A stretch of 59,548 nt of DNA, filler included, from Perkinsus olseni (taxonomy: Eukaryota), in NCBI GenBank assembly GCA_013115125.1. It is 3 parts of 3 records of this genome, joined end to end, with 100 filler letters (N's around TTAATTAATTAA, not from the genome) between each part and the next. Parts side by side here need not be neighbours in the genome. Positions count along the whole stretch, not along the records: positions 1 to 19,811 come from JABANN010000592.1; 2 more parts are not named here. One strand, 5' to 3'. Both the position numbers and the translations under genes were made by a program. Below the pieces are notes generated by a model, which saw only the letters and a program-made list of their open reading frames with translations, was not told the DNA's origin and did no database searches. Below, one piece after another: positions 1 to 39,796 of this stretch; position 1 is the first letter of the stretch; each line of letters opens with the position of its first letter.

Positions 1-2900
1 TCCACGTCGACTGACACAGGAAACGGCCATCATACGGTAACACAACCCCACCGAACGAGGCCTCGAACATTCGACGAGTGGCGACCGTCAGTCGGGTACG
101 ATTATGCCTCTCGCCCGAAAAGGTGGCCAGCAAATACTCCCGACCCTTTCAAGACAGATCGGGTTACCCGGGAGTGAGCCGACGACTAGAGCACTGTCGG
201 ACTAGCAGGGTGCCAAGGAAGTGCATCGATCAGCAGGCAGCGCACGGCTAGATGGCATTCCGGCAATTATTCAAACGGTGGCCCCCCTTTATACCGGGCT
301 GCTTCTACTACGTATATGCCCGCGGAGAGAGGTCCGATACACTCAGTGGGAGGTGAAAATAGTTACCGGAAACTTCTGGTTTTGGCAGAAAGGCCGCCCA
401 CTAAGACACGATCGGACTTTGACCGGCCTACCTCGCTTCAGTTCATCCCCATCATCCCCGCTGGCCGACAGTTGCACCGTGATGAGCCCATCAGGATTGT
501 ACTTGGTACTCAATGCCGAAGCCGAGACTGTGCCAGCCGGGCCGATTGGATGGACGAAGCTGACATGGTGCGGAAGGTCCCCGGTTCGATCCCTGGGCTC
601 CTCTTACATTTCTTCGCTCTTGCTCTTCACCACGACGAGAGGCGATGCCCGAGGGCCTGGTATGATGAAAAGTCCCTCCCTGTCATACGACCCGAGTCTA
701 GCGAAGGGCGATACCAATGCTGATGACGCCTGAATGGGAATGTCAAGTAGTCGGTCAGAGGTCCCCGGTTCAATTCCCAGGCGGCGCAATTTTCATCCCT
801 CACCCAGACAGTGGTGTCCTCCGTGGATGAGCTCATCTCCGCAACGAGTCCGCAGTTTTTATGCTCTACCATTTGGAAGGAGTACGGGAAACTCTCCTGC
901 AACGGTCGACCAGGGCAGGAGAACGATCGGTATCTACAACGAAAAATCGCCAAACAAAAATCCCTTCGCTCCGCCTACATCAATGGTGGTCTGTTCCTAA
1001 TGAGAACCACCAAGACAGGGAGACCGTCGATCCAGTGGAGCTGCACTGCTGCAACAACCGAGGTGGCATCGATAGGCGGCGGGGCTGGTGGAGGCGATAT
1101 CGGCCTGGAATAAAAGAGTTCACCAGAAGGCGTGAACACGAAGTCCGTTGATGAAAGGATCTCCATGAGTGCTGATAGTACAGTCGGCAGCCGTACGCGA
1201 CATCTCGAGAGGCCGAACAAGACATCAAGAATAGGGACCCGAAGTTATCCAGAGGAACTTATTGCATCGCGAATAGCGTACAGAATGATGGTCGAAAAAC
1301 TTCTCCGCTCCGCCGAGGTCTATTCTTCGGCGAATTAGAACTCACCTGGAAGTCGGATCCGTGATAGAGAGGAACAGATTGGTGGTCTTCACCCTAGGAT
1401 GCAACAGCGGCGGGGCTACCGCGATGCAGGCCACATCAAAGACCAGCACAGGAGGGGTGACGGAAATATCGTAACTAGAACGAAAGGGTCGGACGAGCTC
1501 TCGGCACTTGCCGTGACTCATTAGGCCCTTTGCGAAAGCATGTACGGTTCATTCCCAAGGCGTCCAGACTGGAACGAACATTCTGATCATTCTACCTTGC
1601 GCTGACTATGAACGACATTGGAGAAACATCCAACGTCCCTTCTATAATCTTCGCACTTACATCTTCACAGCGCTAGTCTCCTGTTCCACCAGAGTGAGGT
1701 ACTTCGTCATCTTACCACCACTGACATGAGCCAGCCCCCATAGTGGTGGCGGGGTAGCCGAAGCGCCTGGCTCGTCAGGGCAGCCGAGTCGGTCCGTTGG
1801 AATCTCCTTGAACGACCCGTCAATGTGATGGAATAAGCCCAACGTGCCTGGAGGGATAATGACAAGTGCAGGGATCGAACCCGGGATCCACCATCGTCCA
1901 TAACAGCCGCTACAAACTCGTCATTGAGACTAGCCTGTTTGCATGGCAGACCAAAGTGAAGGACCATCTCCGCCGAACACCCAATAGGTAGTCGACGAAC
2001 ACCCAATGGAGTCACCTAAGCAGCATAATTTCGTGGCGCAGTGACAACTTTCCAGTCAGCGTACCATATAAAATGAATCGCCCATCTTCCCAACGTCAAG
2101 TGGAGCTTCCGTGGTCCGATAGACCTCGTCAATAGACGACGTGAGGTCCAGCAGAACACAGCCTTCCTGTTGTCCCAGGCTCAGCACCTAAACCGAGCCA
2201 AGCTACTACCCCTCTTCCACCGCTTCCTCTCGGACACCTGCCTCACCCCATAGCGGTTATCGCCATCAACTACAGTCCATAAGGATATGCTTCGCAGTGA
2301 ATCCAACTCCAGTGCTGTTGAGATGGAGCCTGATCATGTCAGTAAAGATCCCAAAGTGCCCTCCAACCGTACAGCACAGTACTGTGGATACGGCAATTTA
2401 AATATCGTACCGCACCTTCAACAATTCACCACATTATTATCTTAATGTCCGATAAAAAGCTAATCGACGGTAGCAAACGGTTTGCGAGTAATTTCATTTC
2501 GCCCCACTCACACGAGTTTCCTTTACCCATACTAAAGTAGGTAGTACCAAAACTTCCACTACTCACAATTATTCCCAATGCGATGAGCCGAGGGAACCCT
2601 GCCTGAGCTCTTACATGTGAAGACCTCCTCAATAGGAACTTGTCCTTCCCGATGAACCACAGCTAACCGCCCGGTGGTCGACATACCGCACGACAAGACC
2701 AGCAAGTCCGATGGCAGATCCTCCGACGCTGGCAACGGAGCATCAACAGCACTCCCTTCCCGTCACGGCCTACCGGGCAGAGGGGCGGCATGCCTGACCA
2801 CTCCCAGACTTGGCAGCAGATGAGGATTCAGAGACCGGCACTTAACCGAAGGCACCACTTGACTGCTCATCTTCTCGCCAGCGTAACTGACAGGAGAGTT
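1..2900 (-). mobile_element. Possible heavily decayed retroelement/repeat mosaic
   Basis: No long ORF. Minus-strand fragments weakly resemble integrase (LFLSITDPTSR, LHWIDGLPVLVVLIRNRP) and RT (MHFLG) motifs, broken by stops. Motif order is not clean. Confidence 0.3.
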
Positions 2901-3519
2901 GCCGTAAAGACCACCGACTCGACGGAGATGAGCGCTGAAAATCCTAACTAATATTTATCATAATCAGTAATCTATCCGATGTCCAACAAGAAACTAATAT
3001 ACCCTTCATTTGGCATGAGAAATGAATTGAAAATCACTGTTGTTCATAGAACATCTTTCACAGTTTACAAACCCGATTTCGCTCCACTCCAATTTTACTA
3101 CTATGTCACTACCGTAGAGCATACATCACCAGGTCTATGCCGAAACTACAAGAATGAGCATCAACTACCAATGTTTGCAAATAAACACCCCCCTTCTGCG
3201 GTTCCTTATAATAATGAATGTCTACCGTCCGCGGAGCGGTCTCTCGAAGCAGCGTTCGCAACGAGAAATACAGACCTCGCTAAAAATGAGGAATAGAGTG
3301 AATCGTGATAAAGTCAAGAGCACACATAACGCTTTCTCTCCTCTGATAAAATATCAATACTACATCAACCACACCCGTATTACATCTCCATCAGCCTGCC
3401 GAGTAGTGGGTCATCCGACTCCTTCTGAACAGCCTCGAAAACACTCACACCTCCACAAGAATCCTCCGGGCTCTCCGGCATCGTCGACCTACATACAGCA
3501 CGATACGCGCGTACTACAG

Positions 3520-6380
3520 TAGCGCCCCTCATTCTCTACTCGGAGTCGCTCCTCGCGCTCAATGCTGGCAGCCGCTGGGCCGAGGCCGGCGACAACGTAA
3601 GTTGGCTCTCCTCAACGTCAAAGGATGTCAGATCGCCCATCGTTGACGCGCAAATCACAACGCTAAAGAGAAGACCATCAAGAAAAATCCTTTGGGTAAT
3701 TAGCACTACTTTTTTTGTCGATATGAGAGCATCGTGTGGACCGCTTGTAACGGTAGAGTTACCTCAACCCGTTGCCACACCAGATCAGTTATTTGCTCCC
3801 CAGCTCCGAAGATTACATGACAGACGTAGGCCACGGAGGATGCTAGCGCGAAGATAACCTAAACATCAAGCCTTCAACCCATGGGAGTGCGGCATAGCGA
3901 GAACCACCAACTCCGAGAAATATCGAATACGAAGATTCAACCTCGCAAGTTTTCGTGCATCTTGAAGCGTCGAGTGGCCCACCGTATAACCAGCTGCACG
4001 CCATCCCCCATGCCGCCCGCAACTACCACATCACTCCTCCATACAGTAGTTGCACATCCGTCCATCGAGAGCTGCTGGTCTAGGAGGTTTCGTTGCTTGA
4101 TGGGGAGCCGTGTCCGCTTAAGCTCCTTGGCAGATGCAGCCTGCGAACCGAAGAGAACCGATATCCATGCGAAGAGATAAAATTCAGATGCCCAGAATCG
4201 AACACATGATCTTTCGGCTAACCGCCCAGAACCAAAACGATTATATCAATTTCACAGACGACTTCTGCTTCAAAATCCTCGCTCTTCCCCTCTATCACCT
4301 CCGTTGTCGGCTGACACCATGTCGCTCCGAATCCTCCGCTCACAGCTACTACCGCATCCGGCGATAACAGCAGCATGGATGTTCCAAGGCCCAAGGGAAC
4401 CTGCACTTCGGAATGTGACCGAGGTTCGAACCAACCACCCTCTGTTCCCCCCTCCCGGAATTTCACTGAGCGTCCTCCATCCAAACCGCTTCAGTCTATA
4501 CCAGTGTATGCATCTCCGCTGTGAATAATTCTGACTAATCAATGCGTTGAGTTTTCAATCCACACACTCAAGGAAACTAGGGCCTGTTTCGAAATGTTAG
4601 TAGAACAGAACCAGCGCTACATTATCCCGCTCCCCGCATTACTATCGAGAAGGTATTCAACGGCAATTTCTTGACTGCCCATACTGGTGACACGCAGGGT
4701 GATGCGGCGGAACCTCCTCTGAAGAAGACAGCCATGACTTCGCGTATTTGAACCGATATTCGCGAGCATGCAGCCTCTGTTATTCAGTGTAAGTTGCCAT
4801 GAAATGCAATCTCACTACGAAAAAAGCATTTCATACATCCGACGAGTAACAGCTCTCGTCGAGCACACTTGCACGATTTCCGTTATGCCCCAGTACGCAC
4901 GAGCGACCAATCCCAATGTATTACCCAAGGCCAAGGGCTCCTCCCTGTCCATAGCCACCCAGAGCAGCACTACTCTAACACAGCAAACGGCCATGAACAG
5001 CAGCTTCTTCCGGAGCCTTACTGTAGATACAATCCTGCTCATGTCCACTGCCAATATGCTTAGCATGGATGCATTATGGCTACTATGCTCCATACGACTC
5101 GCTGATGGATGAGGGTTCAAAAACGATGGGCCGATGACCGCCAAGACCTGACAGTACCACGCGTCTCCTTGCACGGCAACTTTCTACAGCCATTACCGGT
5201 AGAGTATCCTTCGAGGTACTCGATGGGGTGTCCAAGAACTGCATATCATCGATCGAGTACAAGCCCAACAACCGACGTATTTGGACGGTCTGAGGTGCTG
5301 AGGCCATCGAGCAACAACAGCAAAGCCAACCGAGTCATTGTAGCACAATGATGAAGCTAAGCTCATCGACCAATGCTAAGATTGCGGATCGAAGGCAAAG
5401 CGGCGAAAAGTTGACGCTTCCGAGCCTGAGTTCAACTTCCTTCCTCAATCGATGATGCCTGCCGTGGAAAATACTTCCGCGAAACCGCTGTAAATGCCAC
5501 GATGGCAGTTCGATTCGTAGGTGATGATACTGATGCTGGCAACAAGCTAGTACGTCAAGTTGACAATCATTCAATCTGTCGTGTAACGGAGACAGCAGAT
5601 ACGGCAGCTCCAATCACCCAAATGTAATACACCACGGTTCACGCAGGCCCATGAAGGCCGTCTAATTTTCTGTTACGTCACCAGATCGACACGTAAGTTC
5701 CCGAAGCTCTCTCGTTATAACTGCCCCATTTATGACCTGCGCTGAGCATCCACTTGCGCTCTGCTGCGTATCATCTCCCTCCATGTCCATTGATGAGCCT
5801 CCCAACGTACCTATGCAGCAGTCCAAACTCCGACTGTTCGACAGAACGGGAAGTAAAACACAGAACCATACTCAGGAGGATATTTCACAAAGGGTAATCT
5901 CCCGCTTCAGGAGTTCCACCTGCCTCACGATACTTACACAACGTGAGATGGCCCAGTCTATCGCTGACAGTGATCGCGCAGAGAGACCTCGTCGCACTCG
6001 CCCTCACAGTACAATGCTGCGGATCATTCAAACAGTGGCCCGTCTCCGCTACCACCGATACTGTACGAGTACCTATCAACGCCGCTACGACGACACCGAG
6101 ACGGGTAAGGAAAATCCTACTAGAGCCATCAGCTCCAGTAGCCTCCTCTACTCCAGTCACATGAGACACTCCGCCGTATAATGGGGAATAGCTGCACGTA
6201 CATCGCATCGCATTGGCGTAGGGGTCGAAGCACAGGAGCGATAGCTGACAGAAACAGCTTGAGGGACGGCTGATCGCTGGTGCAAATTATGATGAAATTT
6301 CCGGAAAAACCAGAATCTCCAGGCCTCACACAAGACCAGACTTCCCCGCGTTCAGTTCGAGTTTCACGCTTTTTCCTCAT
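3520..6380 (-). CDS. Possible many-exon hypothetical gene with an N-terminal hydrophobic segment; boundaries approximate
   Basis: Short GT..AG-bounded pieces splice in frame, e.g. IFLTRLGVVVAALI|ALY|SIDWAISRC|SEFGLLH. No family recognised. Confidence 0.3.
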
Positions 6381-9300
6381 CACTACGTGAAAGCACCCCT
6401 GTTACCTGTCCATCTCTAAATATCAACAGCACTTGGTCCTGCTGCTCTCCAGCAGTATCATCCATGTCGCTGTCAACTGTAGCTCTGGGACGGCGGTACA
6501 CCACTGCGTCATGACACCGGCCAGAGAGAAGGGTCTCGCAAACGAACCTAGTAGTGTGATTCAGCGGACGAAGGACTCGATAGTAGTAAGGTAGAATAAT
6601 TTCTCCCTCAAGTTTTCCCTCCGTCGCCTATCATACTGAATTACACGTGGATCCATTCGGAACCGATGCGCAAGTTCGAACTACACATCGTTATCGCTCG
6701 CGTTTGAACTTTGCGGTCGGTATCTTCAACTTTACAGTTACGGGCTCAAGAGCAAATTCTGTAAGTGGTGATGGATTGGTGATATTTCGACTGATTTTAT
6801 TTTTTGAATGTACACTTTACATCAGTGAGTGAAATTGTCAAAGATGCTTCCCTTTCGGTGAGGAGGGAAGGTTACTCCGTAGGGCAGGTGGAGCAACCTT
6901 CGCTGTGCGCTATAAAGATACTCCCATTTCCCTACTACCTCAGCTCTCTAGTTGGTGTGATACGATACAGCCGAAGGAGACATCCACCGCATATGAGAAC
7001 GAGATCCTCTCCTTCACTGTCGCCATCCTCTTTGCTCTCCACATTCGCAATGAATCGGCCTTTTAACGCGAAATCAACGGTGGTTCGGGAGGAGCATTCA
7101 GTGTAGACTTGATGGGACATTAGACCACAGCCCAACTACGATTGGATTACTAGCAACAACGCGGCAACTCAGCATCATCAAACGCCGAATGATTATCATC
7201 ATCAACGGGGGGCGGTCCATCATAACGCATGTTGAGTTCCATTTCGTTTTCCGCGGAATGACCCAGAGCTTATCGCGCCGTCTCGTGAACCAGCTCTTTT
7301 TAACTCAAGAAGGGGGCACCGGCACGAGGTCTTTTGCGATTCAAGGTTGTAATGAGGGTGAATCTTCCGCGGTGATAACTGCACGTTACAGTCCAGGCGT
7401 TAAGGAAAAACCTGTTGATTGCAAATGTAAAGCCACATGTGGATGGAAGCCGAAATCCCAGGCTCAAATTTTAATGCGACTGAGGACCGTCATCCGCGCG
7501 GAATGGCTTTTATCAAAATAGCCGAAAACCCTTCAAAAAAGTTTTTTGAGTGGAAACGGAAATATACACGACTGACATGATAGATTATGCAGGTCACAAG
7601 CGAAACGTTTATCAATCTCAACCAGTCAAACAGACGGACAAAACAGCGCCAGATACAGCAATACCTGTTGTGAGGATTTTGTGGCGCGTGACTCATCTGT
7701 CCCTGTCTTTATCTTCTCGATAATCTTCGGGCGCGGCTCGGCCGTGCTGGCCCCACAGCCGACTAATCGGGCACCGGCGGTGCCCTAGGTACGAAGGTTG
7801 TGCAAGGTTGATAGGGAGGCCGATGTGCCGGACTATCAACGACGCTCCCAGAAACTGAAAACCGGCAGCCAGCACCGCCGGTCAGCAGCAGCAGGGAGCT
7901 GTGAGTCACAGCCTGCGACCTGCCGAGCACCCGAAGCCGTCTTCGAGTAGTATGTGGCGCGTGCGGACTCTGCAGCACGCAAGCTACACGGCATAAGGGC
8001 TCTGACCGCACTCGGCAGCCTGCTGGCAGCCCGCTGGCAAAAGGGCGAACTAGGGGCTCGTCACGGCGATGACATCGCCGAAGCGAGTCACAACTTTGAG
8101 ATCGCTGTGAACGTCTTGGCCATCCGGGCCAATCGATATTCGACGTCACAGGGCTCCTTCTCAAGCTTAGCCACAGTTTGGACTAGCGTCATCTCCCGCA
8201 CGGCGAGACGCGCAGCTGTCGATCAGTCGGCTTGGTAAGGAGCCGTTCGTCGCCTCTGCTCAGCTGTTCACCTCCACAGCCTGTGGAGCCCACAGTGTGG
8301 GCCACAGAAGCTGCCTGCTCAAGTTGGTAGGGTGGGTGTCTGGCTCAATCAGCGGTCAGTGACATCGCCATCCGTCAGTCATCACCCACCAAATATGGCC
8401 ACCCGCTCGGGTCGCGGTCTGCTGACCCAACAACAGGTAAACGGCAAGGATAACCCGCATGAGATTTCGAGAGGCCATCCGCGTAAATGGCTCATGATGT
8501 CATGGGACTTGCGACTACTACGACGGTCCTGTGACTCAGAATTCCTGAATCAGTAAACGCTCCTCAACGTCGTCTGGACTGGCTCCTTGTGGACCCGCTA
8601 GGAACGGTAGCTGCTTAGCGGCAGAAATGCATAATGCGAGCGAAATCCCCATGCTCAAGGTTGGGAGTGTGAACGGCGTGTGGCTTTGCTCTGACCTGTT
8701 TGCCACTCATTAGTGTTAGAGCCAGCAACGGGGCTGCAGCCGGTGTTTGACGTGATCTGGAAGTCAGTCGCCACTACGGCTCTGTAGGACACAATGCTGA
8801 TGCTATGCCACCCCGCTGTCTCTTCGTCTGTGCACGCATGCGCATCAGCCTGGCTGCTGTTGGTCGAACGCATGCGCGCCAGTCTTATTATTAGTTATGA
8901 TAGTACGTGCACTATTATCTGTTCTCTGTATCTCTCTATTCTGTCAAATTGACAGCTCGAGAAATTGAAACTTGGCTTTGGGCATCTATTTAGAGGAAGC
9001 ACCAGACACTGGTGACGGATTTTAGAGTTCTCGCACCGACTTCACGGTTCTACGCACGGATTAGATATGCCCGTTAGTAACGAGCCGTTACAAACTGGGG
9101 CATCCGAATTCACCTTCTCGAATTTGATAGCTCTTTTTCCAACCAAAAATTGGACAAGGTTTATTCTGCGCCTCAGCCAATGGTAACGTAGTTGTGTGAC
9201 AGAACTTCTGTCCCGTTGTATCCACGCGCTCGCGCGTACGTGCATGATCATCACCAGCACCGGCCGCACCATAACTGCTCTCTCCAGAATTGGCCTCGTT

Positions 9301-9787
9301 ACTGCAACACTACCTTGTCTCACTTGACGCACTCCGTACACTCTGTTCACTCGAGTCAGATTAACGGAGCAAAAAGTTATGAAGATAGCTTGTTGCTGTT
9401 ATGTTGGGGCCAGCGTATGCGTGCAACGATGAGGCTAGCCGTTGCCGGGTGTTGACCAGAAGACGCTTCTGAGAAGAGGGACTAGTCCTAGCCCGAGACA
9501 CTGTCGGGCCCTTCATTCATCGATAGAGGCTCTATCATCTCTATATCGAGACACTAAGGCTCTAGGTGACTCGGGCAAGAGAGTCTTTCGGCCTAGTAGC
9601 GCATGAAAACTCACGGTAAATTGTCCATTCTGAAGTGTGCTTTTTCTGGTGAGATGCGTAGTGGGGCATCAGTAAGACCGGAGTCTCCTTCGATTCCCTG
9701 AGATGAGCTTTGCTTCCTAGCCTCTCGAGACAGGCTTTCCGTAGAGGTTGATAATCATTTCAGGTTCTCAAATCATTTGCTCTCGAC

Positions 9788-11239
9788 ATGGACTGCAGTA
9801 GGCTACGGTCAGACTCGCATAGCGATGGCCAGCTACGAGGCTGCCCTTTATCAAGTATCATGCTGGATCGAAGTTTCCTTCGTCACTGCGACAGTCGAAG
9901 TGATGCATTCAGTGCCTCGGTACCAGTCAGGTCCATCGACTTTTTCTTGAGCCATTCTTGGTCTGCTGACGGTTTTTGGAAACAGATGGCTATTTTCATC
10001 TATTTTAATTCTGCTTACAAACTCGTGTTATTGCCATTTTTGACGGGAGCATATCTCTTTCTCTCCCCCACCCTCCACGGCAGACTTCTAGAGCTATTCT
10101 TATTTGTTCCCAGTTGTGTATCATTCCTTATTGTTCTATTCCTTATTCCTCTTTTCAAGCATCGCAATACGATGGTTTTCCTTGATATATGCTGCATACC
10201 ACAGAAGGATCCGGCTGCCAAGCTATACGGTATATCGAAGCTGGCCGAGTATCTCCGAGTATCAGATAAGCTCTTGATACTCTGGTCTCCCGATTATCTT
10301 GATCGGCTTTGGTGTGTTTACGAGCTGGCCGTCTTCCTCCGGACGCATGACGAGAAAGATGTGGTTTTGGTTAATCTGAATCACATCAAGCTCTGTGTGT
10401 CGTCGATGCTTCTGCAGTTCTTCAGTATCCTCACTCTGTGTCTACAGCTCTATTATAAATCAACACAGAACGTGTATATCGGATATCTCATGGGAATGGT
10501 CACGAGTCTCTTAATAGGTCGTGAAGCCTTCGCTTGCAGTAAAGAGTGGCAAAAGTTCTGCTCCAGAGTGAGGCGCTTTAACGTCCGCGAGGCTGAGTGC
10601 ACATCCTTAGCGGACTACGATAACCTCAAGCAGCTCATTACTGATATGTACGGATCGGAGGCGAACTTTGCAGCGGTTGTGAAGTGTCTGTGGCTAGGTG
10701 GAGGTAAAGCGAAGAGCTTTCCCACTTGGCTATTCTCCGGGGCGTCTTTGAGGATCATGTGTGCACCTTCTATCCCCCTCATCGTGGCGTGTGCCGTGGA
10801 CTATATAGTCTGTATAGCCACAGAAGAGTCGTTTCCTATGGTGCCGACTTATTCTCAGAGTCACGCCTCTCCGGTCCCAGCGAGTAAGACGCTCGCGATA
10901 TTCTGGGCCACACGGCTTTCTATTTTTCCGACAACGTTGATGTGCCTTCGTGCTCCCTTCATGCTACTCATCGGACACGGATTGGCGACTCGTTGGAACC
11001 TTCGAAAAATTAGTGGGCGGTTCCTGGCTGTAGCCTTCGCTTTGTGCTTCGCCGCGTACAACTGTTTCGCTCAGCTTGTATGCGGGTTGGATATTTTTCA
11101 TCACCCCTTACGCATATCCATACTGAAGGGGCCTACGGATGAGGCGCTTCTCTGGCTGACGGGATTCATTGCTCTAAGTATGGTATCTCTTCTCTTACGA
11201 CGATCATATACATATCACCTTCCGGAGGATTTGTCATAA
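9788..11239 (+). CDS. Intronless multi-pass membrane protein with split TIR-like motifs (483 aa)
   Basis: Motifs DFFLSHSW, VFLDICCIPQ, LLILWSPDYLDRLWCVYELA and FNVREAEC..D...I are separated by hydrophobic helices. Acceptor-like catttcag lies 24 nt upstream of the ATG. Confidence 0.8.
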   Translation: MDCSRLRSDSHSDGQLRGCPLSSIMLDRSFLRHCDSRSDAFSASVPVRSIDFFLSHSWSADGFWKQMAIFIYFNSAYKLVLLPFLTGAYLFLSPTLHGRLLELFLFVPSCVSFLIVLFLIPLFKHRNTMVFLDICCIPQKDPAAKLYGISKLAEYLRVSDKLLILWSPDYLDRLWCVYELAVFLRTHDEKDVVLVNLNHIKLCVSSMLLQFFSILTLCLQLYYKSTQNVYIGYLMGMVTSLLIGREAFACSKEWQKFCSRVRRFNVREAECTSLADYDNLKQLITDMYGSEANFAAVVKCLWLGGGKAKSFPTWLFSGASLRIMCAPSIPLIVACAVDYIVCIATEESFPMVPTYSQSHASPVPASKTLAIFWATRLSIFPTTLMCLRAPFMLLIGHGLATRWNLRKISGRFLAVAFALCFAAYNCFAQLVCGLDIFHHPLRISILKGPTDEALLWLTGFIALSMVSLLLRRSYTYHLPEDLS

Positions 11240-11962
11240 ATTTAATCTGTATATCACGACTTGACGACCGGTCAGACAAGTTTCGAGTTCTCGTTAATGA
11301 TGAACGCTGCTTCAGAGATCTCATCGAGGATGTCTGTCTGACCTGCGACCATCGCGCGATGATGCGACATCGATTATTGTATGACGGTTTGTCCTTGAAG
11401 ACAGCTGCCGAATTGCATGCAGTACAGGTGCGAGGCTCTTCCGTACACTTTGAAGTCAAACATATTCCGGTCGTACACTTGCAATCCGTCCAGAATCAAC
11501 TCGGTCACGGTAAAGCTTATTTCGACGCAGTTTCGATTCGTGTAGTTTCACTGAAATTGTAATCGCGGCGGCCAACACACCAGAAGAAAAAACCACCACG
11601 GTTTTTTTTCTTCTGGCCATCGTGGGTCTTTTTCTTCTTCTTCCTTACCGTCTTCTTGAGTACATTACAAAGATCTTAGCGGAACAAAACACTTCACGGT
11701 TTCGCGGATTATCGGGCGAGCTCTAATGATTATGGGCACATGGCTTCTGATGTTGATAACTTCTAGCCCGTAAAGAGCGAACCCAGCGAGGATCACTAGC
11801 TTCAAGATAGCGAACCTCGCCGGGATAGTATCTTGTTGGGTAGTCGTTGCTAAACTCCACCCATCGTATCACGGTTAATGCTACACGACCCGAAGTTCGG
11901 TCTGGTGGTCGCAACAGCTCGACCTTTTCCGATCGCCTCTCTTCACATGTTTTTACCTATTA

Positions 11963-12300
11963 ATGATGAACATTCTGACACTTCTAGCTGCTATTGTGGC
12001 TACTCAAGAGGCCTCTGCTAAGCTCTCCGGCGTGTCGTTCCTCGAACTGTCTGAAAGTCCTTTCACGACTGATAACACTGATCAGGAGGCCGCGGAAGTT
12101 GCTAAGACATTGGAAGGACTTAACTTGGACGAGGACGAAGACGGTGAGGAAGATATCTCGTCCGGCGAGGCCATGCTAGGCGAGTCGGGCAGCGCTCACA
12201 TTCACTACTACGTGTGAGGGACATGCGTGTGAAGGGCTCTCAACAACTGTTGTTGTAATCTCATGTCTAGTGCACCCGATTCGAGCTTGCGTTTGAGTAA
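11963..12300 (+). CDS. Small acidic secreted protein; 3' end uncertain (probable short intron near 12212-12270)
   Basis: Signal peptide MMNILTLLAAIVATQEASA, then an SFLE motif and an acidic body. A GT..ctag intron candidate follows HIHYY. Confidence 0.6.
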
Positions 12301-12478
12301 TTCATACCGTCATGTTCGAACACATCCCATTGTTGCTACCGGAGGTCGCCCGTGTGTTTCACAAGTACCAAAGATACTCTGTCATTACGATCCTTTCCAT
12401 GCGTCGACTTTGCAGGTGTATGTTTTATCCCTTCGTCGTTTCGCACCGATCAATTTTCTCGTGTCGTTTAGCGCTCTA

Positions 12479-13005
12479 CACCATTCAGAAGTCTATTTGG
12501 CGGATAAGGTTGCCGTTGCCTATATGGGGGTAGAGGATTTCACGTTGGCGGGTCGTTGAGACAGCGAATTGGCGGTAGGGTAGAGACGGGGGTATACAAT
12601 TGGCGGATAAAAAAGTCATTTTAGCGGCAGGCCCCGAATAAGGCACACAATTTCATGGTTAAGGAAGTCAATTTTGCTGATAAGGACATCAATTTCGGGG
12701 GGCCAACTTGAGTCATACCGGAAATCTTACCGCCGCTTTTCTCAGAGTGACACAACTGCGCGACAGTGTATGACAGTATCTACAGTATCGCGACAGTGAT
12801 GTCCGTATCAGCGAAATTGACTTCCTTAACCATGAAATTGTGTGCCTTATTCGGGGCCTGCCGCTAAAATGACTTCTTTATCCGCCAATTGTATCCCCTC
12901 ATCTCGACCCTACCGCCAATTTGCTGTCTCAACGACCCGCCAATGTGAAATCTCGGCCCCCATATAGGCAACGGCCTTGTCCGCTAAATAGACTTCTGAA
13001 TGGTA
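12479..13005. mobile_element. MITE family A: ~527 bp with ~210 bp terminal inverted repeats, flanked by TA
   Basis: 12479-12691 is a near reverse complement of 12797-13005. Ends are TA|CACCATTCAGAAG...CTTCTGAATGGTA|TA, with TTGGCGG subrepeats in the arms. No coding capacity. Confidence 0.9.
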
Positions 13006-14459
13006 TAGTTCTCTGAAAGTCGTACGAGGCATGGTAATGAACATAACAGTAGCCTGGTAGTTATGAAAGGGCGTGGGAAAGATATGCCCGACGTCCCGAG
13101 CGTATAACACCATCACCTATAATTCAAGATCTATATCAGTACATATTGCGTATTTAACCTGTCCTGGATAGGGTATTTATATTCATCATCATTCATAGGG
13201 GCCCTTAGAGGTTGATATTAGATAGATTCACAACATACGGGTCCAGTATTATGAATAGTTGTCGCTAACTCTGTTGCGCTCATGACGAGCATCTCGCCTG
13301 TCCCTCCCATCGTAGCGAGGCTGCTGTTTTCATAGTTCTATCCGGAGTTGCAGTAGATTGTGTTCATGTCGGCTGCTGCTGCTGCCCCTCCACCTGCTGG
13401 TCATCATCACCACTGGCAGCACCCGTTGGAGACCGGGCCTCTAACAGTCTGTGGTAATACAGGGATTCGGGGCGATACGGGAAACCGGAGGGAAGAGGAT
13501 CTAGTCATTTCACGTAGGGCAAGCTCACCTCAATGAGCTAGCCATGCGTGATGTGAAAAATACGGTACTGATTATCCTACATCTTTCACCAACCTCGCCC
13601 CGCCCGCCCGTGGACAGCGTATCCGAATTGAGATGTGCATGACCACTCCACCAGTATTGCGTTGCACACTCTCGACGCTCCGCTTTCTGGTACCGATCTC
13701 AGAGGGCGCGCTTGCTCTCCTCATAAGGGCTGTGATAGGGGATAACTGATCTGCGTGGTTACACTACTTCGTCGACTCCTGATTAGTCACCTCTGAAATC
13801 ATCGAGAAGCAGTCATGTACTATCGAATGAACACTATTTGCCAATAGTGCCAACACTAACTATTATTATAATACTATTATTATCACCTACTATTTGCCAA
13901 TAATCTCACCGAAGCACGTCCTGGAGCGGTACTTCCATCAAAACTGATCGCATTCGAGGAGAGATGGTATCCTGAATGGTGTCATAAGATGCGCTTCACT
14001 TGAGACCTCTCTGGGAATCCGGGGTATCCCAACTTTCTCTAATCCCGTATACCCGGGAATGTGGACTCTCCTTCCCTTCTCCTCCTCCTTATCGCCCAGA
14101 ATGACCGAAAGGGCGCATGATTCTCCAATATCCGATGATGCCATGCTACCGGTGTTTGGGCTGAATGGCTCCCGAGTGTTGGCAAGATCCACCGCGTGTC
14201 ATGAGCTTCATTCCCGCGTATTTGATCTCACCTCCCTGCCCGGCGAAGCTTTGTTTCTCGACTGAAGAATAGTCTTCGATCGCGGGCCTGCTAGACGTTT
14301 CGGAAACGACAGCCTTTCGGTCCTCCTGTCCACCGACGGCCAATAGGGACCTTGTAGCTTTCCGGAGATACTCTCAATCGTCACAATTCATCATCTGCCT
14401 CTTCTCGTGTCGAATGATCGGGAATTTCGGCTCACCTTCTGTGCATGGATTAATCCAGA

Positions 14460-17400
14460 ATGCTGCGCGCAACCTTGGATACGATCGGCATTCCCGCAGG
14501 TTCTCGGCCGCCGTTATTGGAGCCCTTAGTGGCGGCAGTCTGTGATGCCGCGAACGAGGCTCTCGTAACAGATCAGGATCTGTCAGACCTAGAGGTCATC
14601 GCCTCCCACCAACGCAGTGCATACTATCAGCAGAATCTGTCTTCAGATTGAAGCTCGGCTCGGATTCTTAGCTCCCCATCGAGACTCGTACCATAGAGTG
14701 TTGTTGCCTATAACGTCAGAATGTATACTGCAAGAGCCTGACCATGGCAAGAACTGGCGGTGAGAGTGTCGATGAGTCTGGTAGTTGGGCGGATGTTTTT
14801 CGCTCGGGACAGATATGAGTTTCAAGCTTCGGTGATGCGAGAACAGTTCTTCGCGATACAGAAGCATTTGGAGAAGTTGGCGGCGGGGACTCCTGGACAA
14901 GTTCAGGGACATGTAGTGAGTTGGGTGTGGATGGTAGCTGGGTGGGGGCATCAGCGCCAAATCCGCGGCTTTGAACGTGCATTACGCATCAGCGTTGCTT
15001 TAGTAAAGAGGGAGAGAGTTCCCACTCGTCCCTTTGATAGGCGGCCTTGGAAGTATGTCGCTCATGGTACCTCTTGTAAGGCATGCAACCTAGTGGAACC
15101 GGGAGCGGTGTTATATTCGGACTCCTCCCACCCGGGTTCGTTCCCCGGCCTAAGCATCTCATTCTGTTAGGTTTTCCGAGTGAGAGATGTACGACGGCAA
15201 GTGACGACAACCGATGAGTTCTTCGAGTCCCCTAAGGACGGTCGGGTAAGTGAGCCGCCATCCCGTCGACGCCGCATCAATCAAACCAGATACGAGCAAG
15301 CTACGACAGCGACAGCTACAGTCTGGGAGATCGGACCCGACCGATCGAGATCATTCGGAAGGACCGTCTTAAGACGATCAACGTGTAATATCATACTGAG
15401 GGTATTGGACGTCGCTTTTTTCACTCATCTCCCGTTCTGCCGTTTCCCGCAGCACACCTATCACAACTCAGTTTATTGTCGCTCTTATTGCTCGCGGAAA
15501 GGGGTGCCCGAATTGCATAGGGTTCGCCATGCGTCTTCCAGTATCTGTGGAGCATTCTTGTTGTTGTAGAAGGTTGTTGTATCTTGTTGATACGTGGCCT
15601 GTGTAGGTTCAGCGGACATTACGACCCCACCTATTGTGATGAGGAGAAGTATCCTCTAGATTTGAGGATATCCGTGAACAGAGAGAACAAGTGTAGTTTT
15701 GGGGGCGGCATGGGAGATGAATGGGTGCTCGTAGTGAGCGGACAGTGGTGTTTCGCTTGCGAAATGGAAAACACGAAATCATGTATTTTCACTGGCTTTT
15801 TTCACATCACGGGGGGATCTTCAATTATGATAACTAAAGCGATCTCGTGATGACCTTCGGGGACCACGGTGGATCTTTCTTGAGAGCCGGTCGTGGGCTA
15901 GTGGGAGTATCGTAGCTAGCCAAAGCGTATAGACGGGATAATCCACTCTTGCATTCTCTGAAGTATCGAGGGGGAAAGCAGAGCCACCCAGCGTCACCTG
16001 GTAGCTAGGGAGGGATGCGGCAACGTGCTCCACCAATAGGGAGCAATGCTCTCTGCGTATGCACTAGCATCGGCAACGTGAGATTCACGAGGCAGTCGCT
16101 GAGCTCTGAGTTGGGAATATAATCGACCGAGGGCCAGTTCTTCACTCGGTCGTGTGGTCTTCAGTCTCATCAGTACCCTCTGATGTCTCCAAGTGCACTG
16201 GCAAACGTAACAAGACTCGCCACTCGTACATCTTCAAGGCCTGGCAGGTTGACCTTACCGAGGTTATAGCACAAGGGAAGCAGGGAGAATGGTAACATGC
16301 TCGGGTCGGAACGGGAATCGTCATAAGCTTGCCCTCTTAGTGCGTCGATGTCTAGTGAGATGTGAATGATGACTACCAATTAAAAATACCGCTTTACTGG
16401 GTATTACGGGACTAATCGGTATTATGGATTTTAAAATACCAGTATTGAAAATACCACTAATACCACTCTACTAAATGGGTATTTACTATCCATAATACTG
16501 CCAATACACATGATAGCTTTTGGTCATATCCGATGGCCCTCTAATCTGCATGAACTTTCTGACGGAATCTGCTGCATAATCGATAAGAATGATGATATCG
16601 TCATCGATGGTAGTCTCATGGATCATCTCTGCATTAACCTCGCCCCCTCAACTTTTGCTACTTTCCTGCATAAAGTGGCTTCCTCCGATTCGAGGCCCCG
16701 CACAACGCCACTGCTGTCTCGGATGGCGTTATTGGTGTGTTCGTGTACAGGTCGAGCTACGAGGTTGAGGTGGAGTTGAAGAAGGATCTCATCGCCGAGC
16801 AGTTGAAACGCCTAAGGCTGGGCAAGAACCATGCCGTGTATGAAATTCTCACTGGTAGCCTGACTGCCACACGAGACGTTGGTTGGAATTTCGTGGCGCG
16901 CGGTCATGCTGTAGATTTTATATACTGCGTGCGTGATTTGGCGTGGATGTTCGGCGATGCATATACAGCGAGTGGCGGTCAGCAACAGTGGAACAAGAGT
17001 GGCCAGCGGAAGAGGTGAGTGCGCTTGTGTATATTGCAATTACATACCAACTTTTTCCCAACTCTCAGGAACCGCGGTGACGTGAGCTCGAACGACATAG
17101 ATTTCACGATGTGGTTGGAGCCTGAGGAAGTAGTGAGGGTGCTCTATAGGCCTCTGTCGAATTCCAAAAGCCCTCCAAGGATTTTTGGCTCAACGTCTCA
17201 TGATGAGAGCCCTCCTCATGAAACTCAGGAGAGGCAGCAGGCTATCGAGCACCCGGATTACAGCTCAGGTCGTTCCGTCAGTAGCTTCACCGTCGTCAGG
17301 TACAGCAGCGGTACCTCAAGCGGGTCGCTCCAGTGTTCCCGATAATCGGCGATTACTGTTTTACCATTGCCGAGGAGATCCGCTCACCAAAGGCAGCGTC

Positions 17401-18382
17401 CGCCGAGGAGCCTCCATCGTCTCAGCCTCCCAGTAAGCCCCCACGCTGGTCCGCGGCGTGAAATGATCTCCCTGTTCAACCGGCAGGTGACAAGGAACAG
17501 CCGAAAACTGATGAACCCCCAGCGACAGTGGAAAAGGAAGAGAATGCTCCGGGTGAGTCGGTCTCGCCTCCCTAGTCCACCAGTTTGCTGTTGTAGGCGT
17601 GAGGGTGTCGCACGGTGGGCCACTCCCTGGTGATTGAGTGTAGGGTCTCGTGGCCCGGCTATTCGGGCTGGGTTTCATGTTGTGCTTTTCAGTAGTGCAT
17701 CCAGAGCCGGCCAAGGACGTTAACATGGTGGACGCGGATGAACCTTTAGCGATGCCGGATGACCTCGAAGGAGCGCTGACGATGGATGGAATTGAAGGAG
17801 AGGAAGCAGCAGCGGTGGAAGAGACGCACCATCCGAGTAGGGAATGATACGTGTGATCGGCCGAGCAGCATTGAGCTTGTCTAGGCCCCCTTGGCAGGAC
17901 GCCTGAGCACTCACCGTTCTCCGCAGCACCAGCAGCAACAGCAACAGTTGGCAATGCCAGTACTGTGACAGAGGTTGAGGGTGATGGAGGTGGGGGATGG
18001 ACGAATCTCACACACGGTGGAGTGCTCTGTAGCGCCAGCTGTTGTCATCTCAGCTCCCGTGCAGCCCAACGGTCTCACTGATACCCCGCCTAAGGCCCCG
18101 CTCCCCGTGCCTAGACCTGAGCAGAAGCCTGATGGTGCACAGGAGAATGAGGGTAAAAAATGCAGTGACGGCGGATTGAACCCCGGACCTCATGTTGCTT
18201 CTTCAGATGGTGGATCCTCATCCTCCAGCTCGCGCGGCTCGGACAGCGACTCGGACTCTGATGAATCAGGGTCGGACTCTGGCAGCGAATCATCCTCGAG
18301 CGGCTCGGACTCCGACAGCAGCAGCGGCAGTAGCAGCAGCGATGGCGAGAGTGTTGCCGGAGGGAACGAGGCTGCTACGTGA
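14460..18382 (+). pseudogene. Disrupted multi-exon hypothetical gene(s) with a low-complexity Ser/Asp tail
   Basis: Coding-like pieces with GT-AG introns (e.g. ~17015-17068) but in-frame stops and frame changes. Cys pairs CKAC and WCFAC are present. Ends in SDSDSDS.. at 18382. May be more than one locus. Confidence 0.4.
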
Positions 18383-18606
18383 TGACGATCTTGCAGTATC
18401 ATTGCCTCTTCCACCACTGACCTTGCTTGTATCATAATGGTATCTTGAGGTTCATTCCAGTCTTGTGTAGCTGTCACCCTTGAGTGGACTACGAGGGATC
18501 GAGATATCCACATAGCGATTGGTCGTCTCCGAAGGACATTCACGTCGATGCGCGGGCGAGCAAAATTGCCATGCACCGCAAGAAGGCCTCTTCAGTAGTG
18601 GTTCTC

Positions 18607-19545
18607 ATGAGGTCCTTTCTAGTAATCGGCCACCTGTTCCTAGTAGCGTCATCATCAGCTCGGCAGGGGTATTCTCCTGTGTACATCATACGCCACGGCG
18701 AAAAGCCGGCTGTGAATGATATTCGACAGTCACTCGAGCTCTCACTCAGGTGTGACTCGCCGTATCTTGTCTGACTGTTGTCGACTTGGGTATTACATTG
18801 TGAGGTAGAGAGCGAGAAATGCGTCGCCAAGATGTAGATTCAGACTCATTGTTCTTGTCTAGGGGCGAGATCAGGGCTGCTGCCCTGTCTGGGGCATTCT
18901 TCCCGCAGTACAACCCGTCCAAGTACCGTCATATAGGTAGGTAGGCGTCGTCTTTATCGTGCTCGACAAATCGCGGGTTCTAGGGAGATAGTGTTGATAC
19001 GATGGGAGTCTTGGCTGGGCTGCAGTGATGATGACTTCGCAGACCAATCCTAAAGAGTCCCGTTTTTCCTTGCTAGGGGTCGACTAGGGGACTGCCTTCT
19101 CAGACGTCGTAGTCACTCAGCAGCCCTCTGAGGATTTCCCCATCAAACGTGAGCTACACACAGCACAGGCTATCATCAGCCACACCTCCGCTCCGCTGAG
19201 ACAGTTCAAGTTCGGCCCTCGACTCTTGCCCTCTCTCCTCACCCGTGGCACAGGCACGCTGAGGAAGCCTCCCTTGTCGAGTACCTCCGGGGTCGTGTCC
19301 TAGCTGGCGATATCTCTCTATTAGTGTGGGAACATTATCGAATACCAGCGGTGGCCCTCGCTCTCATCTCTCGATTCAACCGTTCGTATGAAGATGCTCG
19401 GCCTCCAGTGTGGGCTGATGATCGCTATGATATCCTCTGGCAGCTCAACCTCGATGGTGGTACAATCCAGCAGCACTGCATGGTACGCCTGCCGCCCTCC
19501 TTCCAACAGTATACCACTCTCAGGAGCTTCTCTACGGTGATCTAG
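18607..19545 (+). CDS. Secreted histidine-phosphatase superfamily protein, 4 exons
   Basis: Signal peptide, YIIRHGEK, LSLRGEIRA, KRELHT, LLVWEHYRIP, WADDRYDILW. Exons start at 18607, 18863, 19104 and ~19254 and splice in frame. Confidence 0.85.
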
Positions 19546-19811
19546 AGTGCTCGCCCTTCACGATATTCCCGCCAAGCGAGTACTTCCGACGTGCCGAGCT
19601 GCCAGAATCGTTGCTTTCATGACTCAGCAATCTCTTAGAACTGTTAGCTTGTGTTGTCTACATTCTAGGTGTGAGCTTGGTCTTCCTTCATTCCATAGGA
19701 TACTATTCGTTCACGATGTATCGGCTTTCTTCAAGATCTGCCCTACTACGCGCTGCTTGTCTCTCCTGTACTTTGCTATTTTTCCTTCTTTGGCACTACG
19801 CCGAGAGCCCG

Positions 19812-19911
19812 NNNNNNNNNNNNNNNNNNNNNNNNNNNNNNNNNNNNNNNNNNNNTTAATTAATTAANNNNNNNNNNNNNNNNNNNNNNNNNNNNNNNNN
19901 NNNNNNNNNNN
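19812..19911. other. Artificial contig spacer N44-TTAATTAATTAA-N44
   Basis: Six-frame-stop linker inside an N run. Confidence 0.98.
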
Positions 19912-32431: not shown

Positions 32432-33287
32432 TATGAATTCAATGCTGATACCATTGCGGGTCGCTTCACGGCAAGAGAGTATTTTGAGTTGAACATAGTC
32501 AGGTCGGCAGGCCTGCTGGGGGCCCTGGGTGTGAGGACCAGGCCTGGCTGGTAGCTGCCCTTGTGCGAGGCCTGGTGTGAGTTTGTGATCGCCATTCTTG
32601 CCATACACGCACAACAGTCATTAACGGGCACATCCGGGCACCATGATTATCGTGAGTTTCCCGAGCTGCTGTCAAGGCATTCCCACTGGGACCTCTGGAG
32701 CATAGGAAGCCCCGGAATCGATGTCGTGGAACCCTACTGTGGTGGCGTAGGGCCTACCAACACCAACTGGGGCAGTGTGATGATCGAATGGGGAGAGTGC
32801 TGATGAGGAGGGGATGGAGGGCTTCGACGGACCGTACGAATGAAGTCTTGGTCAGCTGTTCTGGGCGACCTTGTAGGTCGAACTCGACTCGTGTCTGGAT
32901 GCGCGCTAAATGCGAAAGGGTAGCCTCGAGTGAAACAGAAACCACTCGAGAGAGAGAAGAGGAGCTCCCCACACTCCTTCGATGGTTCGTTCGCTCCACG
33001 CCGAACGCCTCTTGAGTCCAATCGTAGCACTTCGCCACCTACTGAAGCCGCTGTTGTCCCAAACGCTGGGCTGTTTGCCGTATCATAGATCCCCGTGTTG
33101 CCGCAGAGGCCTCGCCATGCAGTCCATCTCTGGTGAAGCTTCCTTGTCACCAATAGCCTGAAACCTGTACGCGCACTCAAACTCTGTCACAGCCCATATC
33201 GATTACCGGGGCCTTCGCTACTGCAACCGCCAGCACGGCGTCACGCGAATCGCTGTCGGACCATTCCCACAGAACCTCTCCTTTACG

Positions 33288-34577
33288 ATGAAAGGCGAGC
33301 TCGAAGCAAGGCCTTCACTCTATGCCGCAGACATGGTCGTGAACCCTCAGGGTTGTTCGGACTACCGAGGCGTTGCTAACATCGTTATGACGGCTGTTGG
33401 TGTTGGCGTATTGGCCTTACCCAACGCCGTTGCTTTCGGTGGATGGATAGCCGCTCCCTTACTATTAGTACTGTCCTGGGCGTTAACACATTTCCAAATG
33501 TGTTTACTGTGGAAGTGCCTCTTCATGAACCCTTCCCGCAAGCAAATGCAATCGTACGAGGAAGTCGGTCGGGCCTGCTTCGGACGAGTTGGTCAAGTTG
33601 CGGTAGCAGTATGTCTTTATGGCGGTATCTTTTGTATCTGTTCTCTGATCATGATACTTCTCGGTAGTTCTCTTCACAATCTAGCCCCGAGTTTGAGCCG
33701 TTCACTGTGGATTGTCATTTCCGTGGCATTGATGTTGCCCTTCGCCTGGTTGCCGACCTTCAAGCGCGTGGGTGTCATTGCTGCTATAGGTGTAGCAGCA
33801 ACAACAGTCGTTGCGATTTCTGTCATCATAGCCGGTGCCCGGGAAGCAGCCGGTCCCGATGATCATGAGCACGTATTGGGCCCACAGGGCATTGGTGGGC
33901 TCGGCCTTGCCTTCACCAATTTCATGAATAGTTTTACCTGCGCTCCGGTCATCCCAGGGTTGATAGCCGAGATGAAAAACCCGGCCACTTTCCCGCGAGT
34001 TGCCATGTGGTCTTTTCTCACTATAACTGTGGTTTTCGGCAGCATTGGGTTCGCTGGATACGCTGGCTGGGGCATTGACATGCTAAAGTTCGACTTGATT
34101 GTCGATGCTGTGGCGTCATCTGCGGGAAAGGGTGATTGGGTGAACTACATAGTTCAAATATCGATTCTTATTGTTTCCTTTACACATCTACTGGTATTAT
34201 TCGCCCCGCTCGGGAAGGCGAGCGATCGAGCTCTATCCTGTTTCCGGAAGAACAATACGATGCACTGGACAATACTACTGACCGGAAGAAGTGTTGTTTT
34301 TCTGGCTGCTATGGGTTTGGCCCTTCTAGTACCGGGTTTTGGTTCGCTGTTCAACCTCGTGGGCTCTACAATCGTAATGTTTTTGCAAATTCTTTTTCCG
34401 AGCTCATTTTTCCTGAGATTGTTATATCTTGGTTCGAAGGAAGGCATACCTCTGCCATTCAAGTCAAATTTGCAATATAAGATTCATGTAACGGTAGTCG
34501 TATTATGTATTCTCCTAGGTCTCTTCGGATTAGTCCTGGGGACCTATCAAGCGATCGATGCTCTGGCATCCAAGTAG
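33288..34577 (+). CDS. Amino acid transporter, AAAP/Aa_trans family, intronless
   Basis: NIVMTAVGVGVLALPNA, SYEEVGRACFG, EMKNPATF; about 11 hydrophobic segments. Confidence 0.93.
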   Translation: MKGELEARPSLYAADMVVNPQGCSDYRGVANIVMTAVGVGVLALPNAVAFGGWIAAPLLLVLSWALTHFQMCLLWKCLFMNPSRKQMQSYEEVGRACFGRVGQVAVAVCLYGGIFCICSLIMILLGSSLHNLAPSLSRSLWIVISVALMLPFAWLPTFKRVGVIAAIGVAATTVVAISVIIAGAREAAGPDDHEHVLGPQGIGGLGLAFTNFMNSFTCAPVIPGLIAEMKNPATFPRVAMWSFLTITVVFGSIGFAGYAGWGIDMLKFDLIVDAVASSAGKGDWVNYIVQISILIVSFTHLLVLFAPLGKASDRALSCFRKNNTMHWTILLTGRSVVFLAAMGLALLVPGFGSLFNLVGSTIVMFLQILFPSSFFLRLLYLGSKEGIPLPFKSNLQYKIHVTVVVLCILLGLFGLVLGTYQAIDALASK

Positions 34578-39696: not shown

Positions 39697-39796
39697 NNNN
39701 NNNNNNNNNNNNNNNNNNNNNNNNNNNNNNNNNNNNNNNNTTAATTAATTAANNNNNNNNNNNNNNNNNNNNNNNNNNNNNNNNNNNNNNNNNNNN
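39697..39796. other. Artificial contig spacer N44-TTAATTAATTAA-N44
   Basis: Same linker as at 19812. Confidence 0.98.

Follow-up and report, generated by a model that had tools for sequence, protein, structure and literature searches.

A predicted TIR/HET-type domain interrupted by membrane hairpins in a multicopy protein family of Perkinsus olseni

The window, that is, the whole stretch of DNA analysed here, comprises 59,548 nucleotides of the Perkinsus olseni genome (GCA_013115125.1) and consists of three joined contigs separated by N spacers at 19812–19911 and 39697–39796, positions 1–19811 being contig C2893 (JABANN010000592.1). In this contig, one continuous frame on the plus strand (9788–11239) encodes a protein of 483 amino acids, which a first-pass annotation had proposed to be a receptor-like enzyme with a TIR-like fold, an intact catalytic WC..E motif and transmembrane (TM) hairpins inserted in the fold. 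In the models described below, the separated motifs are predicted to form one TIR-like alpha/beta domain, made of three pieces interrupted by membrane hairpins, and the protein is most likely an enzyme that cleaves nicotinamide adenine dinucleotide (NAD+).

The open reading frame (ORF) is spanned without a joint and with no differing letters by two contigs of run X15 (8902–10374 and 10351–11269), so that the coding sequence (9788–11239) is without intron. The runs compared over 7500–15500 (X1, X2 and X15) bear no RNA label on record, yet they include spliced RNA, because their contigs skip five GT..AG introns of a neighbouring gene. The depth of X15 is zero over 11505–12305 and 13641–14441; X1 shows some depth in all 30 bins, and therefore has DNA or unspliced RNA mixed in. 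Upstream of the ORF, the plus-strand 5' untranslated region (UTR) covers 8902–9565 (left end approximate; contigs X15, 8902–10374, and X1, 8916–9567), followed by a 198-nucleotide GT..AG intron within the UTR at 9566–9763, which is kept in the X15 contig and skipped in one X1 contig through a joint whose shorter side is 26 letters. Since the triplet just before this joint is an in-frame TAG, ATG at 9788 is likely the start codon. The 3' UTR is short (11240–11271, right end approximate), the contigs ending at 11271 in X1 and at 11269 in X15; such contigs show neither true transcript starts nor strand. Just upstream of the transcript, at 8795–8947, contig depth is far higher and loose ends occur in three runs, which is probably due to repeated sequence.

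The motifs named in the first-pass annotation were read at the positions claimed for them: FLSHSW at residues 53–58, VFLD at 130–133, LLILWSPDYLDRLWCVYE at 162–179 with the GAG codon of Glu179 at 10322–10324, and A269.C271....D276 with I284, with hydrophobic stretches between and after the motifs. The query and 119 of the 144 aligned family members contain the ordered trio, which none of 20,000 shuffles of the protein reproduced. As the motif of helix alphaC is S167..Y170..R173.W175C176..E179, the S..Y..S.WC..E signature that had been claimed holds for Ser167, Tyr170, the WC pair and Glu179 but not for the second Ser, which is replaced by Arg; position 173 is Arg in 127 and Lys in 15 of the 142 non-gap rows, versus Ser in 12 of 14 TIR_2 controls. 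The annotation had further staked its enzyme on conservation of the Glu among homologues, and E179 is indeed Glu in 141 and Asp in one of the 142 non-gap rows. All nine signature positions are retained in 137 of the 144 sequences, most of them just ~20–25% identical to the query. Row by row, S55 and H56 are each found in 143 of 144, W58 in 144, R17 in 129, C271 in 134 and F294 in 140, and D276 in all 143 non-gap rows. Mutual information coupled S57 with D169, C176, Y288 and G289 across the three pieces, a signal that is confounded by phylogeny among the 144 related sequences and was not counted; in the same sequences it did not identify the partner of strand 17–20.

An AlphaFold2 model built with the 144 sequences reached a predicted local distance difference test (pLDDT) score of 88.5 (85.6–88.5 over five models) and a predicted template modelling (pTM) score of 0.88, with strands at 17–20, 50–56, 129–131, 159–166 and 192–196 and E179 on helix 174–186; the same fold was predicted for residues 10–321 alone. 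The resulting map, all on the plus strand, begins with a conserved strand and helix (LRG.xL, residues 16–26, 9833–9865; strand 17–20 in both models) ahead of the TIR core. Piece 1 (residues 50–72, 9935–10003) would supply betaA with S55-H56-x-W58 (strand 50–56), which aligns to betaA of the TIR_2 and HET profiles, and then alphaA (helix 62–72). Hairpin 1 (9986–10156; TM1 ~67–90, TM2 99–123) leads from alphaA to betaB. Piece 2 (10157–10375) is predicted to hold betaB (strand 129–131, with D133, C136, I137 and Q139 at or after it), alphaB, betaC (159–166), alphaC (R173, W175, E179) and betaD (192–196); in alphaC, Glu179 (10322–10324) occupies the catalytic position of TIR NADases and aligns with the Glu of the TIR_2 S.W...E and HET R.W...E motifs. 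Hairpin 2 (10376–10525; TM3 197–221, TM4 229–246) follows right after betaD. Piece 3 (10526–10762), delimited by conservation and the model, consists of cytosolic helices with F264, C271, D276 and F294, and is succeeded by a four-helix membrane tail (TM5–TM8, 10763–11197) with variable outer loops 345–369 and 432–451. The hairpins and the tail were placed by hydropathy, model helices and charge bias. In the model, a short C-terminal tail (11198–11236), basic after TM8, is on the inner side and touches the TIR core. Both models have isolated bridge residues at 173 and 270, and others occur at 317 and 476; their presumed pairing suggests that piece 3 packs on alphaC and the C-terminal tail on the core.

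In a structure search over 48,161 chains, the top eight rows were TIR domains (Z 6.7–7.8), and the top five rows of Foldseek were plant TIR domains. A second structural comparison gave AbTir (7uxu; Z 9.0, root mean square deviation 3.0 over 92 aligned residues, model residues 49–196), MyD88 (Z 8.7), SARM1 (Z 8.5) and RPP1 (Z 8.5), with many TIR alignments extending to model residues 480–483 or 312–317. The Z scores were not raised with residues 10–321 alone (SARM1 8.0; most rows helical hairpins). Although moderate, they carry weight because they agree with the sequence evidence. Together with the model and the profile alignment of betaA–betaD, these matches argue for the annotation's proposal that the separated motifs fold into one TIR-like domain. 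A search of solved structures by sequence returned none at E 0.001 (best TIR rows E 0.22–0.32), a viral fold library likewise gave no match at E 0.001, and HET was not among the fold-search matches, whose library may hold no HET structure. A weak match of the alignment to sensory rhodopsin (E 0.01) covered the hydrophobic tail alone and was dismissed as composition.

The structural ranking by itself would also suit a non-catalytic membrane scaffold that signals by protein contacts as in Toll-like receptors, since the TIR domains of MyD88, IL-18R and TIRAP match about as well as those of enzymes; an adaptor role has moreover been proposed for HET by Dyrka et al. (PMC4986451). We consider a scaffold improbable: E179, D133, Q139, H56 and D276 are nearly invariant polar residues whereas most adaptor TIRs lack the Glu, and a TIR_2 search of the genome, made exon by exon and giving a lower bound, returned family members only and no separate partner TIR.

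Pfam matched the 483-residue protein to TIR_2 at E 0.0015 (19.4 bits versus a cut-off of 28, over betaB–betaD only) and to TIR at 13.4 bits (cut-off 21.3), with no HET match; both scores fall below cut-off, and the split lowers them. A HET search of the P. olseni genome returned nothing, as did its controls. Among 27 Perkinsus copies at E 1 or better, 20 match TIR_2 and two HET, and among 80 library members at E 0.05 or better, 50 match TIR or TIR_2 (six above the TIR cut-off) and one HET, the best HET score in the family being E 0.035 (14.9 bits versus 22.5) and none exceeding the cut-off. With hhalign, the intact family profile aligned to TIR_2 at Prob 80.7 and to HET at 56.7 (35.7 in a separate run); removal of the hairpin columns gave Prob 95.7 for TIR_2 (E 9e-9, 99 columns, betaA–betaD) and 91.8 for HET (E 7e-7, 106 columns), versus 0.6 or less for reversed profiles overall, 0.4 or less without the hairpin columns, and only 0.18 for HET against TIR_2. 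Both control sets are narrow. The TIR_2 set consists of 14 domains from one Thiothrix genome, a 4.3-Mb metagenome-assembled genome in which 22 of 24 TIR_2 matches lie above cut-off. The HET set consists of HET-E-type metagenome proteins found by a motif search that gave 118 loci; both blocks shared a frame in 65 of these, and 46 were aligned. It covers a single HET subtype, of which all four members examined pass the Pfam HET cut-off. In the latter, SHxW is present in 46 of 46, DxxCI in 44–46 and RxWxxxE in 46, this last having been fixed as the search pattern, and the TIR_2 set has SY, a lone Asp and SxWxxxE in their place.

Residue for residue, SHxW, DxxCI and RxWxxxE are common to the Perkinsus family and HET (PF06985), a point absent from the annotation: by residue table and profile alignment, the signature residues belong to the HET branch of TIR-like domains. 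The Asp-to-Glu spacing is 46 in the family, 40–41 in TIR_2 and 56–93 in HET. On this sequence comparison, the family lies between TIR_2 and HET, with a HET-like signature and TIR_2-like spacing, and is canonical in neither. The N-terminal HET alignment is confined to the SHxW block and that of the C-terminal piece has Prob 0.3, with short profiles and one HET subtype; reading the A.C...D plus YGS segment as the HET-E C-terminal motif was unsupported (Prob 0.3). Could the resemblance to TIR be accidental, produced by short motifs in a membrane family that is not related? Pfam scores below cut-off, the lack of a sequence-matched solved structure at E 0.001 and Z values of ~8 point that way, but sequence-profile, profile–profile and fold searches all give TIR or HET with the elements in the right order, and unsplit proteins with the same signature exist that are annotated TIR or HET, so that this very improbable explanation is largely refuted.

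To place the pieces relative to the membrane, we counted lysines plus arginines (K+R) in the 8 residues before and after each helix across the 144 sequences. The before/after means were 1.81/0.45, 0.52/1.55, 0.96/0.46 and 0.44/1.65 for TM1–TM4 and 0.57/0.58, 0.59/1.26, 1.65/0.41 and 0.61/1.49 for TM5–TM8, alternating as predicted at seven of eight helices, with no bias at TM5. Most likely, therefore, as far as charge and model can indicate, this is an eight-helix protein in which both termini and all TIR pieces are inside. When the hydropathy threshold was set to 1.6, insert 1 carried two hydrophobic segments in 88 of the 144 sequences, one in 52 and none in four, and insert 2 carried two segments in 87 sequences, one in 46 and three in one, with none in the other 10. 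Since many members thus show one segment, one helix per hairpin is often weak, and the hairpins may be re-entrant instead of spanning. TM4 hydropathy is weak in the query copy (1.2) and ~1.7 in distant members; the tail has three segments in 63 sequences, four in 33, two in 33 and fewer in 15. The spacing from the Ser of betaA to the Asp of betaB is 69–112 residues in the family versus 26–30 in TIR_2 and 45–58 in HET. Hydropathy, alignment and K+R bias thus bear out the two interruptions of the fold by TM hairpins; the label 'receptor-like' fared less well and is graded weak, as the four outer loops are just 7–25 residues long and there is no ectodomain, the N-terminus lying inside, ahead of piece 1.

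The first-pass annotation had also suggested a census of paralogues and a family without description. A search of the P. olseni genome gave 33 matches, 20 of them in unbroken frames of at least 450 residues, while the frames of several other copies are broken or truncated at contig ends. Searches with two divergent copies gave 29 matches each, all at loci already known. About 29 loci, a lower bound, thus carry the core. Tandem copies are present on contigs C571 and C537. Paralogue L013 (G000:C2939:6713–8155) shows an in-frame loss of eight residues just before WCVYE. In L014 and L019 (C2724), L016 (C2481), L024 (C537), L028 (C3232) and L021 (C2781) the frame shifts, contains a stop or ends early, and these damaged copies are consistent with birth-and-death turnover.

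Across 13 close paralogues, the ratio of nonsynonymous to synonymous substitution (dN/dS; pooled Nei–Gojobori, dS near saturation) was lowest in the core (0.10) and rose through the third piece (0.19) and the helices (~0.3) to 0.49 in the outer loops. This pattern is relevant to a further explanation, in which the TIR-like domain binds a nucleotide (NAD+, ADP-ribose or a cyclic messenger) and gates an eight-helix effector, be it a channel, pore, transporter or scramblase. Messenger-gated membrane effectors are employed in bacterial defence, eight helices could line a path, and the hairpins join the nucleotide-binding fold directly. We regard such an effector as unlikely, as there is no conserved polar lining (N74 at 58% and D334 at 38% are the best, the rest at 22% or less), helix identity is 11–24% among distant members, the number of tail helices varies, and no channel or transporter is prominent among the structural matches. 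A conserved enzyme on a variable membrane body fits better than a conserved pore, because the signature is kept and the polar residues of TM2–TM8 are poorly kept.

Outside P. olseni, a profile of 16 Perkinsus cores searched against 1.84 billion cluster representatives matched 4,706 clusters at E 0.001, 2,853 at 1e-10 and 999 at 1e-30, the sequences inspected being the best 150 of the 4,706. Of 20 clusters looked up, five were dinoflagellate proteins, two were from Perkinsus and 13 had no organism label; the dinoflagellate members come from Gymnodinium, Fugacium, Symbiodinium, Polykrikos and Durusdinium. Named relatives in P. olseni (up to 97% identity over half the length) and P. chesapeaki are in many cases labelled merely 'TIR domain-containing protein' or hypothetical. 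The nearest ESM Atlas clusters are eukaryotic and without Pfam family, most commonly Haptophyta (0.96), and a partial query gave leads under 0.9 only. In a FastTree phylogeny of 142 cores (two of 144 rows were left out for gaps, and the sample is biased to the best matches of the Perkinsus profile), 17 P. olseni copies fell within one 29-tip clade (support 0.86), and 11 close copies formed a clade of their own (support 0.90). Pattern scans, which are no proof of absence, gave 83 matches in viral contigs, none confirmed, and in prokaryote genomes no split form, the one confirmed match of 12 being an ordinary unsplit Thiothrix TIR; PADLOC had no match for the 483-residue protein. Fused long forms (1141–3255 amino acids) yielded one weak match. 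The literature searched holds no account of the family, in line with the annotation, and a description of a membrane-split TIR was not found in the open-licence literature, subscription papers being outside the scope of that search.

With enzymatic TIRs (AbTir 7uxu, SARM1, RPP1/RUN1, SpbK, ThsB) the protein shares a betaA–betaD core, parallel strand order by alignment, the betaB Asp and W...E in alphaC, but theirs (Pfam TIR, TIR_2, ThsB_TIR) are contiguous and soluble, whereas the Perkinsus domain is twice interrupted and shows no separate betaE in the model; in its signature, betaA is followed by His/Trp and betaB by Cys-Ile-x-Gln, and the Trp is preceded by Arg. HET domains, unlike the Perkinsus protein, are soluble, have a longer betaC–alphaC loop (Asp to Glu 56–93) and often stand at the head of NLRs. 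HET has been described as a distant relative of TIR, present in haptophytes and stramenopiles as well, whose similarity declines past alphaC (PMC4986451; see also PMC12881547 for background). Toll-like and IL-1 receptors, as in Perkinsus, are membrane proteins with a cytosolic TIR; they differ in crossing the membrane once and in having a large ectodomain and an intact TIR that follows the helix and in most cases lacks the catalytic Glu. According to Hurieva et al. (10.64898/2026.04.20.719644), the alphaC Glu defines catalytic TIRs, and most adaptor-type animal TLR and interleukin-receptor TIRs lack it. The TEP1 extended TIR (TeTIR), which is rich in inserts and has a rearranged C-terminal part, is an active NADase (10.64898/2026.09.21.753143), but its insertions are soluble, it has an RWG loop and it always stands ahead of NACHT, while the Perkinsus inserts are membrane hairpins; the word 'transmembrane' is absent from that paper.

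Two published tables contain proteins with related signatures. Fifteen TIR genes of Gephyrocapsa (G.) huxleyi change expression in viral infection (Shaler et al. 2025, PMC12489294), and four rows of Table S9 in that paper (373cFLNC_57018782, cogent2300_i1, cogent4121_i1 and 373c_4351) carry SHSW, D..C..Q and RLWCV.E including the Glu, one of them in the early-response cluster. For three of the four, 5–7 membrane helices are predicted; the top structural match bears a HET label in two, and C-type-lectin-labelled matches occur in two. Unlike in Perkinsus, the domain is unsplit, with the betaB Asp ~30 residues beyond SHSW, and is located after the membrane part (PMC12489294). A TIR atlas table (Culbertson et al., PMC13142454) holds 27 RLWC-bearing rows, all 'Not in supported Clade'. 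By eye, these are mostly split membrane forms from dinoflagellates and a haptophyte, a diatom, a pelagophyte, a foraminifer and a euglenid, transcriptomes that may be contaminated; several rows, from choanoflagellates, Ectocarpus, Rebecca and Yihiella, lack the split or carry inserts that are soluble, and one row is a TIR unrelated to the family.

From the gene, RNA coverage, fold, topology bias, conservation and family size, all established by computation, we infer, leaning towards this reading without great assurance, a signalling enzyme that is embedded in the membrane, cleaves NAD+ and has its site switched by way of the hairpins; catalysis, substrate, gating and a defence role all belong to the conjectural part. 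The three cytosolic pieces would form one TIR/HET-type alpha/beta domain against the inner membrane face, anchored by the two helical hairpins that exit the fold after alphaA and after betaD. S55/H56/W58, D133/C136/Q139, R173/W175/E179 and probably C271/D276 would line a pocket that binds NAD+ (or its phosphorylated form, NADP+), and Glu179 would release nicotinamide, leaving ADP-ribose, a cyclic ADP-ribose messenger or NAD+ depletion. Because the hairpins join betaA–alphaA, betaB and betaD directly, the site would be switched by a change in the helix bundle, which might follow from clustering, from damage to the membrane, or from contact with a partner protein or with a ligand that is small or lipid-borne. 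The paralogues would then combine a common enzyme with differing outer faces, like a sensor repertoire.

Several points weigh against such a switched NAD+-cleaving enzyme. Z values under ~8 can be common according to the search tool, the best Foldseek E value was 0.13, with none reaching 0.001, and the chain search ranked a nucleoside deoxyribosyltransferase next after the TIR domains (Z 6.6). The TM limits were picked from hydropathy and the model without a dedicated predictor. DSSP on the model assigns four core strands, betaA–betaD, and no separate betaE; after betaD there is no strand of at least three residues, just the bridges at 270, 317 and 476. Strand 17–20 might fill the betaE place. 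Canonical TIR NADases complete their active site between protomers, and as no separate betaE is seen in the model, the surfaces for this may be absent here. Positive selection was not seen on average in the outer loops (dN/dS 0.49, dS near saturation). The mode of action of HET is not known (PMC10890737), the virus-linked G. huxleyi proteins are of the unsplit type and not the Perkinsus split type (PMC12489294), and Dictyostelium TirB and TirD showed no NAD+ cleavage in vitro (PMC13142454), so that TIR membership does not ensure activity.

The deoxyribosyltransferase matches (Z 6.6 and 6.4, versus 7.8 for the best TIR) also leave room for an active N-glycosidase or transferase of the same fold whose substrate is not free NAD+ but another nucleotide or a lipid- or protein-linked ribosyl group, as do the invariant H56, W58, C136, Q139 and R173, which in TIR_2 are Tyr, variable, variable, variable and Ser. 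With all top structural ranks taken by TIR domains, and 50 of 80 members matching Pfam TIR or TIR_2 at E 0.05, six above the TIR cut-off, we think this other substrate rather unlikely.

The TIR domains known so far are unbroken, and what switches them is clustering that other domains drive; where the fold is threaded twice through the membrane, an NAD+-cleaving site could instead be controlled from inside the bilayer. Members of the family are found in coral symbionts, in bloom dinoflagellates and in shellfish parasites, organisms about whose defence and sensing little is known, and the split hides the family from domain surveys, as in the 27 RLWC rows outside supported clades (PMC13142454). 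A broader claim, possible but doubtful, is that of a class of receptor-enzymes made of a single chain, found across protists with thousands of clusters and expanded in perkinsids and, separately, in dinoflagellates, in which hairpins wired into the TIR/HET fold switch an NAD+-cleaving site by membrane sensing. If true, dinoflagellates, perkinsids and haptophytes would have in this class a main repertoire for innate immunity or sensing, and the family would be a sequence bridge making the question of HET catalysis testable. Because its profile matches both TIR_2 and HET, which gave no match with each other in that comparison, it offers a handle on whether HET domains are enzymes.

Elsewhere in the window, the NCBI model P0005 splices residues 129–365 of the 483-residue protein onto the mRNA-capping enzyme beta subunit (13355–15386). 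We judge this fusion a likely gene-prediction error, since the RNA-derived contigs end at ~11270 and the capping gene joins 13452 to 14499; database models P0024 and P0025 carry similarly odd tails. Between the two genes, at 12467–13017, lies a ~540-bp non-coding element with long inverted arms (162 nucleotides at 93%, plus outer arms) and 112 genome matches, which from its sequence looks like a miniature inverted-repeat transposable element (MITE) or a foldback element. Long single-frame ORFs on the other contigs, at 33162–34577 (plus strand), 36485–38005 (minus) and 56123–57568 (minus), bear a tentative likeness, by eye, to an amino-acid transporter, a peptide transporter and an N-terminal nucleophile amidase, respectively.

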